This document shows, piece after piece, positions 4,301 through 39,025 of a DNA stretch of 59,260 bases. Made by a program: the position numbers and the translations under genes. The first letter of the stretch is position 1. Each line of letters starts with the position of its first letter. The stretch is from Dehalococcoidia bacterium (GTDB lineage: Bacteria > Chloroflexota > Dehalococcoidia > DSTF01 > JALHUB01), in contig DAOULP010000225.1 in NCBI GenBank assembly GCA_034420175.1, forward strand, positions 1-59,260, given 5' to 3'. Below the pieces are notes generated by a model. The model did no database searches, was not told the origin of the DNA, and worked only from the letters and a program-made list of their open reading frames with translations.

Positions 4301-5665
4301 CTAGCCTGCCTCCCAGCCATCCAGTCGGCGCAGCGTCTCCTTCAGGTTCTCCTCCATGAAGCGAGACGTGAGGCGGCGGATGCCGTCACGGTCGCCGCGG
4401 CGCTCGAGGGTCCGTATTTCGTCCGCCAGGCTCTCCGAGCGCGACGCCAGCTCCTGCTCCCACTCGCCCCAGGACTGCTGGAGGCGAACACGCTCGCTGC
4501 GAGGGCGGTCGAGGACCGCGTCCTGAAGGGTCTTGAAGCGCCACCACGGTGAGTCCGCATCGAAGGATGCGCCACCCACAGCGTGGGCAGCGGGCACGTC
4601 GCCCTCCAGATACAGAGGGAGGAAGACACCGGTGCAGGGCGCCGCAAGCGAGGCCCAGAGGTCGGGCAGGCCATCCCACTCGGGCCGCAGGCGGGCCACG
4701 ATGCTGGCGGTTGTCCCGTCGAAGGGGTCGGCGTGGAAGCAGAGCGTGAAGAAGTCGTCGCCCTCCCGGTCTCGCTGCTCCGGGAGGATGGTTCCCGACT
4801 CGCCGTGGTCGCGGAGGAAGCGCATCATGTCTCGGAGCGTCAGCCGGCCTTCGGCCTCCTTCAGCAGGGCGCAGCCGCGAGCGAAACGCCCCTCCGATAG
4901 GCGGCCTGGCACGACCTCCGTGCTGCGGTAGGCGCTGGCGAACCGGAGCCGACCGCTGCCGGCCTTCCACCAGCCCTGCTTCACCGCGTGCTCCTCGACG
5001 TCTTGCGAGGCCAAAGACCAGTCGTCCTCGATGCTGAGGTGGTTGGAGATACTCCCGACGCCTTCCACCTGGCGCGTCGCCCACCGCTTGCCGGATGTCT
5101 CCAGTATCCAGGCGTCTGTGGGATCGGCCATGAGGAAGGAGTTGTGGTAGCCGAAGGTTCCGTTCGGATGGGCCGGCCCGCCCTGTCCGTGTGTCTCTAG
5201 GAGCCCTGTGATCACCTCCAGCGCCTCGCGGGCGGTCGCGGCGCGTTCCAGCCCCAGGCGCACCAGGTCCATCCCCAGCAGTGCCTCTGGGCCCTGCGGC
5301 TCGTGGCTGAAGACGGCTTCGTTGCCGATGGCGACGCGGCAGTCGTTGACGCCGTGCTCCAGGCCCCAGAGCCAGTAGGGCTGGGAGCCGATGAAGCCGT
5401 GCGTCTTCTCGACCTGGGGGATGGAGAGGTACTGGCAGCGGACGCGCGAGCCCGGCGGGTGGTGTTGCGGCGGGACCTGCACCAGCGGCTGCGACTCGAG
5501 GACCGGCCGGTCGCTGTTCTTGGCGAAGAGGGTGGAGCCGTCGGCCGTCGCGCTCGGCAGCGCCACGAGGGTATCGCAGCCGAGGGCAGGCAAGGCGCAT
5601 GTGGGCGCGGGCTCGGCGATGGCGCGCTTGTCGCGCGAGGCCCAAGAGGACGTTTCTGGTCTCAT
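4301..5665 (-). CDS. Peptidase C69 (secernin/dipeptidase, Ntn hydrolase); true start may be nearer 5593
   Basis: CDT nucleophile motif, FAKNSDR, EHGVN, GNEAV, GMDLVRLGLERA. Confidence 0.85.
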   Translation of the reverse strand: MRPETSSWASRDKRAIAEPAPTCALPALGCDTLVALPSATADGSTLFAKNSDRPVLESQPLVQVPPQHHPPGSRVRCQYLSIPQVEKTHGFIGSQPYWLWGLEHGVNDCRVAIGNEAVFSHEPQGPEALLGMDLVRLGLERAATAREALEVITGLLETHGQGGPAHPNGTFGYHNSFLMADPTDAWILETSGKRWATRQVEGVGSISNHLSIEDDWSLASQDVEEHAVKQGWWKAGSGRLRFASAYRSTEVVPGRLSEGRFARGCALLKEAEGRLTLRDMMRFLRDHGESGTILPEQRDREGDDFFTLCFHADPFDGTTASIVARLRPEWDGLPDLWASLAAPCTGVFLPLYLEGDVPAAHAVGGASFDADSPWWRFKTLQDAVLDRPRSERVRLQQSWGEWEQELASRSESLADEIRTLERRGDRDGIRRLTSRFMEENLKETLRRLDGWEAG

Positions 5666-5727: not shown

Positions 5728-6963
5728 CTAGTACCTGTCCAGAACGAGCCGTGCGGCGGCCAGCGAGAGGACCTCGTTGCAGCCGTCCTCGATCATGGAG
5801 GCGCGGGCGTCCCGGAAGAGCTTCTCCACCGGCATGTCCTTGCAGAGTCCGTATCCGCCGTGGAGCTGGATCGCATCGCTGGCCACCTCAAAGGCAACCT
5901 CCGTGCAGTAGACCTTCGACGCCACTGAGTACTGGGCCTGAGGCGGAAAGGCGGTGGTGTTGTAGATGCTGGCCGCCCTTGAGATGGCGCGGGCGGTCTC
6001 CACCTTCGTGAACATGTCGAAGAGCTTCTTCTGTACGAGTTGGTGTTCGGCGATGGGCTTGCCCCCCTGCACCCGCTGCTTGCAGTAGCTGAGCGCCTCC
6101 TCGAAGGCGGCCCTGGCGACACCTGTGAAGACCGTGCCCATGCCGGCGTTGGCCGCGGCCAGGATCGCGTCGACGATCGGAGGGAAGGTCGCCGGCTCCA
6201 CCAGCATGTAGTGCTTGGGGATGCGCACATTGTCGAAGAAGATCTCGCCCTGGTTCAGGGCCCGCTGTCCGAGTTTCTCCAGGGGCGGCCCCTTGGACAC
6301 GCCGGGCAGGGTCAACGGCACGAGGGCCACGCCGCTGCCCGCCATCCCCTGCGCCGGGTCCAGTGTGAGGAATAGTAGGGCGTGTGTGGCGATGGTGCCG
6401 TTCGATACCCAGGCCGCCTTCTGACCGTTGATGACCCACTCGTCGCCATCGAGCACGGCCTTGACGTCGAACGTGATGCTGGGGTCGTGGAACTGTTCTG
6501 TGCCGAAGAGAACGCAGTCGGACCCGTGCTCGGGCTCGGTGATTGCCCAGCAGCCGATGTACTTCGCCTCCCGGTCCTGGGCGAAGGGGATGACGAACTC
6601 ATTCATGAGGTCCTGGTTTCCGCTCATGAGGGCGAAGCTGAACGGCATCGCCGTCACCCCCAGGCCGATCGCGAAGTCCGCGCTGCCCCAGGATATCTCC
6701 TCGCTTACGATGTGCTGCTCCAGTGGTCCCAGCCCTGCACCGCCGAGCTCCTCGGGGAACCCCTGGGTGTGGTGTCCCTGCTCATAGGCCTGCCGGAACA
6801 CCTTCCAGAGGGCGGAGTCCTCCTTGATGACGTCCTCGGCGGACAGCTTGTCCAGCTCCATGCTCGCTGGACGCAGCACCTCCTCGGCGAATCGGTGCGT
6901 CTCCTCCTTCAGGGCAACCTGGGCGGGAGTGAGGTCGCGGTTGAGGTCCAGGTACGGGCTCAT
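5728..6963 (-). CDS. Acyl-CoA dehydrogenase
   Basis: CWAITEPEHGSD, INGQKAWVSNG, IQLHGGYG, KLFRDAR; AAAGGAG RBS before ATG 6963. Confidence 0.95.
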   Translation of the reverse strand: MSPYLDLNRDLTPAQVALKEETHRFAEEVLRPASMELDKLSAEDVIKEDSALWKVFRQAYEQGHHTQGFPEELGGAGLGPLEQHIVSEEISWGSADFAIGLGVTAMPFSFALMSGNQDLMNEFVIPFAQDREAKYIGCWAITEPEHGSDCVLFGTEQFHDPSITFDVKAVLDGDEWVINGQKAAWVSNGTIATHALLFLTLDPAQGMAGSGVALVPLTLPGVSKGPPLEKLGQRALNQGEIFFDNVRIPKHYMLVEPATFPPIVDAILAAANAGMGTVFTGVARAAFEEALSYCKQRVQGGKPIAEHQLVQKKLFDMFTKVETARAISRAASIYNTTAFPPQAQYSVASKVYCTEVAFEVASDAIQLHGGYGLCKDMPVEKLFRDARASMIEDGCNEVLSLAAARLVLDRY

Positions 6964-36064: not shown

Positions 36065-36592
36065 GGGGCAGGGCGGAGGCGATGCCCGTCACTCTCCCAT
36101 CGTGCGGTGGTGATGGCCGCCGTCACTGGCGCTGTCGACCGCTTTGCACACCACCTGCGATGGCGAAGAATGGACCCCCTGCACCGTCTCGAAGCACCTG
36201 CTCACCTTGACCAGAGGAGCCGCGGCACTCCTTCCGCGGTCCCCCTCTTCAGTGTCTTCTCCCCCCAGGCGTCGATCGATGTTGCAGATGAACGGCTGCT
36301 GAACCTTCTTCCGGACACGGCCACAAGTTCCGCCGGACGGCGACATCCTCCCTCTTGGAGTTCGTCCGGTCAGCGGTGGCGGAGCTGGGCGCCAAGCCAA
36401 GCCGCCGACGGAATTCTGTGACAGGGGACCCTCTCTGCCTCGCTGCCGAGAGGATTGGCGACTTCTCATCGCGGGGGAAGTTGCCTCTGAGCGTCAGGTG
36501 ACCTCGCTCACGGGGAAAGCTGATCTCCGCAACAACAGCTTGCCGTCGTCCACGCCTTCGGGAACGAGTGGCGACACGGACAACACCCGCAG

Positions 36593-36820
36593 CTATGACT
36601 CCCCCTCACCTACCGGTTCATGGTACGTGGCAAGAAGAGCTTGGTTCTCGTCGTACCACAGGGGCTTCTCGTTGCGAAGCATGTCCACCATTGCGCTGTA
36701 GTCTTCATATGAGAGGCCGTTGATCTGCCGCGCACCTCCCCCTTGGAAAAGCAGGACGATCGACCCGGACTTCGCGTCATGGCTCCAGGCGAGCTGGTAT
36801 TTCTCGACGCCCTTGTGCAT
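36593..36820 (-). CDS. 75-aa protein homologous to the C-terminal extension of the upstream Tgl
   Basis: AAGGGAGG RBS; 36/71 identical without gaps to Tgl residues 254-324. Confidence 0.85.
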   Translation of the reverse strand: MHKGVEKYQLAWSHDAKSGSIVLLFQGGGARQINGLSYEDYSAMVDMLRNEKPLWYDENQALLATYHEPVGEGES

Positions 36821-36855
36821 TTGCTGCCTCCCTTGATCTCAGGTGCAGGCAACGC

Positions 36856-37830
36856 CTAGGATTCATCCTCCCCAACTGACTCCTTGGCAGTTGTCAGCAC
36901 ATTCTGCAGTTGCTGATAGTACACAGGCTCCTCGTGACGCAGCGTGTCAACGAATGACATGTAGTCAGCGTGAGTCAAGGGATCAATCTGGAGACCCCCT
37001 CCATCCTTGAACAGCAAGACAACGACGCCCGAACTTCTGTCGTGAAGCCAGCCCAACTGATACTCCTTGACCTCGCGCCAGGCGGCATACTTGTCGTACT
37101 TTGCCAGACCGCTGAAATCCGGACGACCTGCTTTGTCCATCAGGTAGGCAGATTTGGTGGCCCCCGGTTTCCGATTCTTGTTCAGCGAAGCAATCATGTC
37201 GCTGGCAGACTCTATGCCGACACCGTGACCGTAGTACTCCCCGTCCCCGAGATCGATCACGTTCTCTCCTTGCCACCACGGGGTCTTCGGGTTCACTTCC
37301 GGGTTCTTGAAGTACCTCCGGTCTCCAGGTAGATAGTCCGGTTCCTTTTGCCAGGTCAACCCAAGGTCTTGGTCAGACTTCCAGCCCTTCAGCACAATTC
37401 CCTGAAATAGCTTGTTGAATATCGCTGGGTGGAGTGATTCCAGAAGCGCCTTATAGTAGACGATCATCATCGCGGTGGCGCACTCGAATGCATACTGCGG
37501 GCCATTCGTGAAGATGTCAGCAATGGCGGCAGAAGGCTCAGTGCCCTGTCTTAGTTGGAACCCGCCAGCGCTGGTGCGATCCCAGAAGGCGGAGTTGCAC
37601 TTCGAGTATTTGAAGGTGGCGAAAGTGGCGCCACTCCCCTTGAGAGCCTTTGCGCTGGCAATGATATTCGTCCTCACCTTCAGTTCGAACTTCAGTTGGT
37701 CTAGCGAACCGTAATCGTGTGCCGTGCCACTTGCGGCCATGCTGTTGATGATATCCCTTCCGGCGCTGCCTGACGGCCACTGCCCGTTGATGCTACCGGG
37801 AGAGACGGTGGTCCCCGAGACTCTGATCAT
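36856..37830 (-). CDS. tgl: Protein-glutamine gamma-glutamyltransferase (Bacillus Tgl-type transglutaminase) with a C-terminal extension
   Basis: Collinear with B. subtilis Tgl as recalled: MIRVSG, LKFELKVR, YAFECATA (Cys117), YFKNPE, QGENVI (Glu189), YGHG (His202), GATKSAYL. Confidence 0.92.
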   Translation of the reverse strand: MIRVSGTTVSPGSINGQWPSGSAGRDIINSMAASGTAHDYGSLDQLKFELKVRTNIIASAKALKGSGATFATFKYSKCNSAFWDRTSAGGFQLRQGTEPSAAIADIFTNGPQYAFECATAMMIVYYKALLESLHPAIFNKLFQGIVLKGWKSDQDLGLTWQKEPDYLPGDRRYFKNPEVNPKTPWWQGENVIDLGDGEYYGHGVGIESASDMIASLNKNRKPGATKSAYLMDKAGRPDFSGLAKYDKYAAWREVKEYQLGWLHDRSSGVVVLLFKDGGGLQIDPLTHADYMSFVDTLRHEEPVYYQQLQNVLTTAKESVGEDES

Positions 37831-38840
37831 CGTGAACCTCCCAGGTCCGCTGCTTTCAGTTGCTCCGCCAATGGAGTGCGAATCCAGGCGTCCCAAGAGT
37901 CGACCTTCTGGTGACGCGTCACGGCTGAGTGCGCGGCAAGACCGACTTTGAGGGGGTCGTCCAGGTTCCTGAATTCCTCTAGAACTCGGCCTTCGTCCTC
38001 CGTCAGGGGGCCCAGTATCTCCCCGGAGTCAATCGATACGAACCTCCCTAGGTACTTGGCCTCCAACACCACAGCATAGGGTGTCGGTTCGCTCGTCATC
38101 TGGAAGCTCTCGCCCTGGAAATACAGAAAAGGTCCGTTCTCTTCAAGCCACTTGTGGAAAGCTCGATACTGCTGTTCGCCCTCGTTGTCTCCGCGTACAT
38201 CTATCCCTGGCACAAAAGCAAGCAGGCGACGCGCTAGTTGACGCTCCCCTGCGCGTGGAGATCGAAGGCGGTCAGCAATCATCAACAGGCTGTGTGGCTG
38301 ACGGGCTTCGAAGAATGCCCACACCAGATCTTCGACGTCCACGTTCACGTTTGTCGCGGCGCGAGCGAAGATCAGCTCCACCACCTTCGGCAACACGTCT
38401 CTGTCTCCGAACGTGACCGTCAAGAGCGAAGCCGTCGCGTCCAGCACGTGGCCATACTGAGGATCCGATGCGAGCTGCGGGACGCCGGTTTCCAGCATCC
38501 ACCTCAACACGGAGTGAACCATTTGCACGTGGTCGGCTATCGATAGGCGGTAGGAAACAGCAGGCGAATCCCCCTCACCCGACAGAATGTCCCTGACAAG
38601 CTCCATTGCGATTCGGTTGCGCTCGTTCAGTCTGCCAGGGAGGGCCAGATTCTCCACATCATCCCGAAGGACAAACAGAGAGGGGAACTGCAAGTCTTCA
38701 TGATTGAGTGCGTCAGTCGCATCTTCTGCGTCACGAGCGGCGGAGTCGCGAAAGAGCTTCTTCAGCGCTTCAACGCCATCATCCTGCCTGACTTGATCCA
38801 GACGGGCTGTTCTGTGCTCGTGCTTGTCTGCTGTCGCCAC
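37827..38840 (-). CDS. Helical hypothetical protein translationally coupled to tgl
   Basis: GAGGGAGG RBS and GTG 38840; ATGA overlap with tgl; motifs DLVWAFFE, FLYFQGESFQ, EAKYL. Confidence 0.8.
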   Translation of the reverse strand: MATADKHEHRTARLDQVRQDDGVEALKKLFRDSAARDAEDATDALNHEDLQFPSLFVLRDDVENLALPGRLNERNRIAMELVRDILSGEGDSPAVSYRLSIADHVQMVHSVLRWMLETGVPQLASDPQYGHVLDATASLLTVTFGDRDVLPKVVELIFARAATNVNVDVEDLVWAFFEARQPHSLLMIADRLRSPRAGERQLARRLLAFVPGIDVRGDNEGEQQYRAFHKWLEENGPFLYFQGESFQMTSEPTPYAVVLEAKYLGRFVSIDSGEILGPLTEDEGRVLEEFRNLDDPLKVGLAAHSAVTRHQKVDSWDAWIRTPLAEQLKAADLGGSR

Positions 38841-38997
38841 GCTGCCCTCCCTCTCGCCTGCTGCCGCGCCACTTCTTCTCACCGGCGCCGACCGGGAAGC
38901 TCCGTGATGCTGTGAGTCTCGGCGCAGGTACGATGACTACCGACACGGGCGTCGAATGACGGCCCGTTCGTCGTTTTGGCGACTCAACGGTGACCGT

Positions 38998-39025
38998 ATT
39001 ATACGCGTTCTCCACCCGTTGACAA
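38998..39025 (-). promoter_or_regulatory. sigma70-like promoter driving the tgl unit
   Basis: Minus strand reads TTGTCA-N16-TATAAT (plus strand TGACAA 39020-25, ATTATA 38998-39003). Confidence 0.55.

Follow-up and report, generated by a model that had tools for sequence, protein, structure and literature searches.

The window analyzed here, a 59,260-nt stretch of the genome of a Dehalococcoidia bacterium (Chloroflexota; contig DAOULP010000225.1, positions 1 to 59,260), encodes a transglutaminase of the Tgl family that carries a 71-residue C-terminal extension, followed directly by a gene for a protein of 75 amino acids (aa). One small, independently folding domain, called the module below, is present here in two paralogous copies: tethered as the extension of the enzyme, and free as the small protein. 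Judged by its occurrence in other genomes, the module is a discrete and portable domain that occurs by itself, in tandem arrays and as the C-terminal end of several enzymes; its family is previously undescribed and corresponds to no curated one. A possible function, which we favor tentatively and would not yet call probable, is homotypic docking, by which protein-modifying enzymes would be recruited to the free small protein or to its oligomer.

The relationship between the two copies in the window is clear from their alignment. Residues 5–75 of the 75-aa open reading frame (ORF) match Tgl residues 254–324 without gaps, with 36 of 71 positions identical and 50 of 71 positive (BLASTP, E = 9e-23). 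This is far beyond chance and reproduces the gap-free match of 36 identical residues in 71 from which the original prediction, made from the DNA sequence alone, had started. The prediction had also placed the beginning of the extension where Tgl proper ends, and the catalytic domain indeed stops at about residue 245–250 (PF20085, 7c9j and 4p8i). Small proteins of the LRNEKP...VGEGE type, which it had tentatively placed in other genomes, were indeed found there by the family searches. The motifs LRNEKP and terminal EP.GE.E are kept in both copies, and the window 75-aa protein has no cysteines. The 75-aa ORF is evidently a real gene, since it is preceded by a Shine-Dalgarno sequence (AAGGGAGG, 6 nt before its ATG), has homologues in other lineages (69–78% identical, beside Tgl or M6-like enzymes) and shows a low ratio of nonsynonymous to synonymous change (dN/dS).

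The enzyme itself can be considered a bona fide Tgl family member on the basis of profile matches, catalytic residues and homology to solved structures. Its ORF (36856..37896, minus strand), with the start taken at the ATG at 37830 and the stop at 36856, encodes 324 aa. PF20085 (TGL) matches residues 1–245 over profile positions 1–244 of 245 with 335.4 bits (cut-off 23.7), NF002869, the NCBIfam equivalog, gives 336.8 bits (cut-off 307), and the solved Tgl structures 7c9j (E = 5e-69) and 4p8i (E = 3e-53) align to residues 1–250 only. E116, C117 and E189 are invariant columns in an alignment of 70 Tgl sequences, E189 being the counterpart of Glu187, the second catalytic Glu of Bacillus subtilis Tgl beside the catalytic Cys116 and its neighbor Glu115. 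Cys116 and an E115A mutant of the B. subtilis enzyme are mentioned in the literature (PMC6490927). An AlphaFold2 (AF2) model gives the core of the window enzyme a predicted local distance difference test score (pLDDT) above 90. Proteins carrying the module make up 5 of the best 120 of 1,458 Tgl clusters, aligned at full length, in a collection of 5.8 billion proteins; the organisms named among the other matches in those best 120 clusters are all Firmicutes. The biological setting of the window Tgl is probably not a spore coat: the flanks contain no sporulation genes and are of housekeeping type (ilvD, GHMP kinase, F420 ligase).

Searches with a module profile among 1.84 billion representative proteins returned 332 clusters (50% identity) at E ≤ 1e-3, 36 of them at ≤ 1e-10. 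The majority are free proteins of 70–95 aa, typically about 75 aa, from both bacteria and archaea; sources include Anaerolineae, Methanophagales, Lokiarchaeota, Nitrospirales, Myxococcota and the cultured gammaproteobacterium Sinobacterium caligoides. In a second search that returned 263 clusters, all named ones were "hypothetical" and none had a Pfam domain. Likewise, no Pfam family was common to 138 members at E ≤ 1, the window module protein matched nothing in NCBIfam, PADLOC or PHROGs, and a profile search of the PDB gave only chance-level matches. Scans of genomes, metagenomes and viruses used one alignment (A1) and so address the close subfamily only, a more diverse alignment (A2) being too variable; the viral scan with A1 found no matches. 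The conserved core reads D.LRNEKPV.YD ... L.T..EPVGE.E at the C-terminal end, where the tail consensus EPVGExE is followed by 0–10 residues that vary in number and kind after GE. An AF2 model of the free module built from 106 sequences reached a mean pLDDT of 93.9 and predicts a βββαββ fold with an acidic tail (strands 2–13, 18–25 and 30–36, helix 38–50, strands 54–57 and 62–65, and a less ordered tail at 66–75). Foldseek found nothing significant for this model (best E 0.076 in the PDB and 0.028 in the viral library, with TM scores of 0.5 or less), and sub-threshold matches to HIV reverse-transcriptase subdomains and chromo-shadow-like domains were treated as noise.

The module is also found in tandem, with fused repeats in P0032, P0087, P0115 and P0030 and adjacent paralogue genes at three loci (L036, L043 and L044). 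P0030, P0115 and P0087 are multi-repeat chains of 2–3 modules each; P0030 adds an FmdB-type zinc ribbon and P0087 a helix-hairpin-helix, both only as sub-threshold matches. Two apparent fusions were not counted as true ones. P0012 (L038, 1–672) joins an IS110-type transposase fragment in frame to a module that lacks its first 17 residues and is probably a family copy disrupted by an insertion sequence; P0051, an AdoHcyase fragment with a module, was assumed to be miscalled. In a "long" subfamily, proteins of about 110 aa (MAWKWYEI...MVDLLRNEKP...EPVGEGDG) are 65–84% identical across Saprospiraceae, Inquilinaceae and Promineifilaceae. The subfamily spans Bacteroidota, Alphaproteobacteria and Chloroflexota and has neither enzyme fusions nor conserved neighbors, and this conservation is unusually high for an orphan small protein.

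The layout seen in the window recurs on unrelated enzymes (Table 1). Loci were fetched, their six-frame translations were scanned with the hidden Markov model (HMM) of the family, and the gene neighborhoods were then read. In all four catalogued enzyme fusions (Tgl, an M6-like protein, a C39-like peptidase and the further enzyme-like protein P0100) the module is the extreme C-terminus. A free copy lies 26–89 nt downstream on the same strand in 6 of the 7 distinct fusion loci with downstream sequence, the six being the window, the Methanophagales loci represented by L008/L017, the low-GC locus L046, the Anaerolineae locus L001, L013 and L047. The layout therefore occurs in three lineages with Tgl and in two with the M6-like partner, plus one C39-like case. 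The original prediction had named in advance, as a test, the presence of the module with enzymes or in tandem elsewhere, and it is found in both contexts. The partner in L001 and L013 is related to M6 without being a bona fide member, as TIGR03296 matches it at E = 1e-14 to 1e-16 with 52–61 bits, compared with a cut-off of 110.8. Where HExxH would be expected, these proteins (L001 4334–5911, L013 4389–5972) have EEILH or EEVIH (EExxH) as the sole candidate motif, and they may be catalytically inactive or have altered metal ligation. The C39-like fusion lies in a region (L047, 1076–9791) rich in peptidases and inhibitors, which also encodes a C1 peptidase of the papain family, an I42 inhibitor of the chagasin type and a large VWA-containing S8 peptidase. 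In Methanophagales, a 650-aa peptidylarginine deiminase (PAD_M + PAD) is encoded directly after the free module gene (L008 5226–7178, L017 5003–6955, also L009–L012), so that a second protein-modifying enzyme is part of the archaeal operon. This deiminase has no module, and its gene is absent from the window.

Table 1. Features of the window operon and of other loci with the module (window positions on the whole stretch; the last column gives the distance from the fusion gene to the free copy).
Feature	Location	Strand	Match or basis	Gap
Promoter-like site TTGTCA-16-TATAAT, candidate operon promoter upstream of gene X	window 38998..39025	-	11/12 consensus positions, consensus scan alone	
Gene X, 351 aa (or 337 aa from downstream start)	window 37827..38882	-	ORF; partner conserved beside Tgl	
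Tgl catalytic domain, residues 1-245, protein-glutamine gamma-glutamyltransferase	window 37096..37830	-	PF20085, NF002869, PDB 7c9j/4p8i	
Tethered module, Tgl residues 254-324, ending ...ESVGEDES	window 36859..37071	-	BLASTP to free copy E 9e-23; family HMM E 6e-24	
Spacer from Tgl to small gene, 35 nt, containing AAGGGAGG ribosome-binding site	window 36821..36855	-	direct sequence reading	
Free module, 75-aa acidic protein, motifs LRNEKP and EPVGEGES	window 36593..36820	-	family HMM E 2e-32	
Tgl with module, free copy downstream	window		PF20085	35 nt
Tgl with module, free copy downstream	Methanophagales/ANME-1: L008-L012, L017-L020, L027-L029, L037		PF20085	33-36 nt
Tgl with module, free copy downstream	L046, GC 0.32, Spo0E-like gene nearby		PF20085	26 nt
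M6-related metalloprotease-like protein, 525-527 aa, with module and free copy	L001/L026 (Anaerolineae), L013-L015		TIGR03296 below cut-off	28-89 nt
C39-like cysteine peptidase, 596 aa, with module and free copy	L047		PF13529, E 2.5e-7	76 nt
"Long" subfamily of the module	L030-L034, L039-L041, match near 5840-6180 or 4845-5180			

The kinship of the copies was read from a single alignment of tethered and free modules. The free copies beside Tgl (window and archaea) and those beside the M6-like protein (L001 and L013) form one orthologous group, within which the window free copy is 69–75% identical to the others. Tethered copies are only 43–57% identical to their own free partners, and the Tgl-tethered copies of the window and of the archaea are 75% identical to each other. 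These identities indicate that the duplication is old, and that the free protein is the constant element and the accompanying enzyme the variable one. Selection on both copies is purifying: a comparison of two archaeal loci gives dN/dS values of 0.011/0.207 (about 0.05) for the free copy and 0.012/0.068 (about 0.18) for the tethered copy. When the window is compared with the archaeal loci, the proportion of synonymous differences is 0.78, at which synonymous sites are saturated, and each copy has a proportion of nonsynonymous differences of 0.15. No other gene of the cassette is as well conserved as the free copy.

Docking would account for this pattern in the following way. If modules bind one another, the tethered copy on Tgl would engage the free copy translated alongside it, or an oligomer of free copies, and the constitutively active enzyme would be held on the small protein instead of roaming the cytoplasm. 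The small protein would then act as scaffold, substrate or both. In other organisms the same docking logic would hold for the module-bearing M6-like and C39-like enzymes, with the free protein as a hub and the tethered copy as an adaptor acquired by different protein-modifying enzymes. Adjacent paralogue pairs and tandem repeats are typical of self-associating modules. That one conserved hub protein serves different enzymes is suggested by the free copies being closer to each other than to their tethered partners. Such an arrangement would be a hard-wired form of the control known for B. subtilis Tgl, which is made active and is restrained by substrate-driven localization onto pre-assembled complexes of SafA and C30, where C30 is the C-terminal part of SafA in free form (PMC6490927). 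The original prediction had proposed from the tethered and free copies a docking or polymerizing domain; the portability of the domain and the recurrence of the layout with three unrelated catalytic domains now speak for it, and the docking step itself is retained as a tentative reading. Its suggestion that the small protein, with its several Gln and Lys residues, could be the substrate has gained no specific support, as no Gln or Lys separates Tgl-linked free copies from M6-linked ones. A bolder extension, which we consider a long shot, is that the 75-aa protein is the hub of an unrecognized bacterial and archaeal protein-modification system, in which a transglutaminase and metallo- or cysteine peptidases are plugged on through a tethered paralogue, with an arginine deiminase alongside, and in which Tgl would either cross-link the small protein into a covalent polymer or lattice or use transglutamination to tag other proteins with it.

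Several observations weigh against docking of copy on copy. The family consists mostly of orphans that have neither conserved neighbors nor an enzyme close by; more distant free copies that were examined (from Sinobacterium, Lokiarchaeota, Nitrospirales and a 0.87-Mb metagenomic contig, L005) had neither an enzyme fusion nor a conserved neighbor. The small protein must therefore also have a function of its own, and the primary partner of the module may be something other than the module itself. Downstream of the P0100 fusion (L048), the roughly 950 nt available on a short contig contain no free copy. In the full-length Tgl model, made from Tgl sequences only (alignment A5), the module part has a pLDDT of 50–74 and is uninformative on docking; an alignment combining free modules with full-length Tgl (A4) was discarded because the free modules were misplaced in its N-terminal half. 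Finally, gene X, the gene upstream of Tgl, which had no place in the original prediction, could be an equally good candidate for the Tgl substrate or for a partner.

The orphans bring to the fore the idea that both copies bind a common third-party target, such as a protein, a component of the envelope or a small ligand. The tethered copy would bring the enzyme to this target, the free copy would bind the same site as competitor, marker or regulator, and the copies would not bind each other. Hundreds of free copies without nearby enzymes or conserved neighbors would be expected of such a protein, and its conservation across bacteria and archaea fits as well. Conservation is also highest in a loop motif (LRNEKP) and in a disordered tail (EPVGExE), both of which resemble contacts with a ligand or partner. 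The idea nevertheless leaves unexplained why a free copy so regularly lies 26–89 nt downstream of the fusion in one operon, and why tandem and paired paralogues exist, and no candidate target is conserved in the neighborhoods; we regard it as unlikely, if the most serious of the alternatives. A different use of the same pairing would be regulatory, the tethered module being autoinhibitory or chaperoning and the free copy a trans-acting inhibitor or decoy that restrains an always-active enzyme in the cytoplasm, much as with the SpeB prosegment and its downstream homologue Spi in streptococci. Every partner enzyme modifies proteins, is potentially harmful and lacks a signal peptide, the L047 neighborhood also contains a papain-family peptidase and a chagasin-type inhibitor, and B. 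subtilis Tgl has no zymogen form, so that some other control is needed (PMC6490927). Yet one orthologous free protein accompanies three catalytic mechanisms, which is unlikely for an active-site-directed inhibitor, most free copies have no enzyme to inhibit, and the M6-like partners with EExxH in place of HExxH may be inactive. Because the free partner is orthologous whichever enzyme it accompanies, docking fits better than an enzyme-specific inhibitor, and a regulatory role seems to us distinctly unlikely.

The small protein could also be a carrier or tag, covalently modified on its tail or surface, or ligated by Tgl as a ubiquitin-like mark that peptidases would process or remove, with the tethered copy merely recognizing the handle. 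Its size of about 75 aa, compact fold and flexible, conserved, Gly-containing C-terminal tail invite this comparison, the partners are a transamidase and peptidases, and a peptidylarginine deiminase follows the free gene in the archaeal loci. Against it, the topology is βββαββ and not a β-grasp, there is no terminal GG, the variable residues after GE leave the tail without a defined C-terminal acceptor, no Gln is conserved family-wide, and the enzyme fusions keep the tail too; this role is improbable in our judgment. There remains a neutral origin, in which partial tandem duplication, or fusion with a neighboring paralogue, produced the pairing without any function. Adjacent paralogue pairs do exist, and an enzyme fused to the first copy of one would give the layout mechanically, but the layout has been kept in at least six lineages with three enzymes, selection on both copies is strongly purifying, and the free copy is better conserved than the rest of the cassette. 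Such a by-product was already disfavored and is very improbable indeed. Homotypic docking thus remains our preferred, still tentative, reading.

In the window the module genes are part of a larger unit. Gene X, Tgl with its module and the free module adjoin on the minus strand and look like a single three-gene operon, because the TGA stop of gene X and the ATG of Tgl overlap as ATGA, the 75-aa ORF has its own ribosome-binding site and begins only 35 nt past the Tgl stop, and a promoter-like site lies upstream of gene X. Three promoter-like sites were found in the region by consensus scan, compared with 0.6 expected from shuffles. Gene X has no match in Pfam, NCBIfam or PDB. It is 57% identical to an archaeal gene in the equivalent position and is also present in the low-GC locus L046. 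It resembles the N-terminal extension of the Tgl protein P0369, has the invariant motifs GEQQY and ESFQ, and ends in GG(SR).

The closest relatives of the window cassette are in Methanophagales (ANME-1) archaea. The cassette DNA is 68% identical to the Methanophagales loci over 2.25 kb, a likeness that stops at the stop codon of the 75-aa ORF, and the proteins are 57% (gene X), 66–67% (whole Tgl) and 73% (free module) identical. The region from about 36,600 to 39,000 has a G+C content (GC) of 0.54–0.60, compared with 0.68–0.72 in the flanks. This low-GC island and the DNA identity to Methanophagales indicate, by the sequence evidence, that the three-gene unit was exchanged horizontally between archaea and bacteria. 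A search of the literature yielded no relevant report of an ANME-1 transglutaminase or of Tgl together with arginine deiminase in archaea. Genes on either side of the cassette in the window are ilvD and those for a GHMP kinase, a methyltransferase, CofE (F420 ligase) and an F420-dependent oxidoreductase. Between the convergent GHMP kinase gene and the 75-aa ORF lie about 530 nt (36065–36592), in which no convincing ORF, Rfam match or terminator-like site was found, nor any remnant of the archaeal deiminase gene. PADLOC, PHROGs and Rfam gave no matches; no trace of a defense system, phage or RNA element was seen, and no tRNA genes were found.

Tgl is a minimal transglutaminase that is made constitutively active, and how it is confined has so far been answered only for the spore coat of B. 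subtilis. If docking is true, the locus would represent a genetically hard-wired solution to confinement in three small genes, and its adaptor logic would have been taken up by three unrelated enzyme classes. A module that self-associates could also serve as a compact recruitment tag for engineering. The module itself defines a new domain family that folds confidently and has no solved relative, and transfer of the Tgl cassette between bacteria and archaea would have brought it into non-sporulating lineages.

Comparison with known systems helps to place the module. With ubiquitin-like proteins, Pup and LysW it shares a size of about 75 aa, acidity and a conserved, flexible, Gly-Glu-containing C-terminal tail. 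Ubiquitin-like proteins have a β-grasp fold (ββαββ(α)β) and a C-terminal Gly-Gly, Pup is disordered, and LysW has a zinc-ribbon globular domain and a C-terminal EDWGE that ends in the acceptor Glu. The module differs from the first in its βββαββ topology and lack of a terminal Gly-Gly, with no β-grasp match in Foldseek at E < 0.07, from Pup in being folded, and from LysW in having neither a zinc ribbon (the window protein being without cysteines) nor a fixed terminal Glu. No ligase genes were present near the module in the neighborhoods examined, and membership of the module in any of these three groups was rejected, the defining features of each being absent. In Streptococcus pyogenes, the papain-fold enzyme SpeB has a tethered prosegment, and a free homologue of that segment, Spi, is encoded immediately downstream. 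In that case the tethered segment is the N-terminal propeptide of one protease, whereas the module is a C-terminal domain common to three enzyme classes and is widespread as an orphan.

Similar in logic, although only by analogy, are CheA P5 and CheW of chemotaxis arrays and SctQ of type III secretion with its internally translated C-terminal fragment, in which tethered and free copies pair pseudo-symmetrically, build the assembly and place the enzyme. As in the window, the C-terminal domain of a large protein is paralogous to a small free protein encoded beside it. These systems have no sequence or fold relationship to the module, which would form a putative assembly here and serves several unrelated enzymes. 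The spore-coat Tgl of B. subtilis (PF20085; PDB 4p8i/4pa5) has a homologous catalytic domain with conserved Glu-Cys and Glu catalytic residues. It has no counterpart of the module, and the hosts differ, the cassette being found in a high-GC bacterium with F420 genes and in ANME-1 archaea without a sporulation context. The substrates of the B. subtilis Tgl include a full-length protein, SafA, together with a free copy of its C-terminal part (PMC6490927); in the window it is the enzyme, and not the substrate, that bears the tethered copy.

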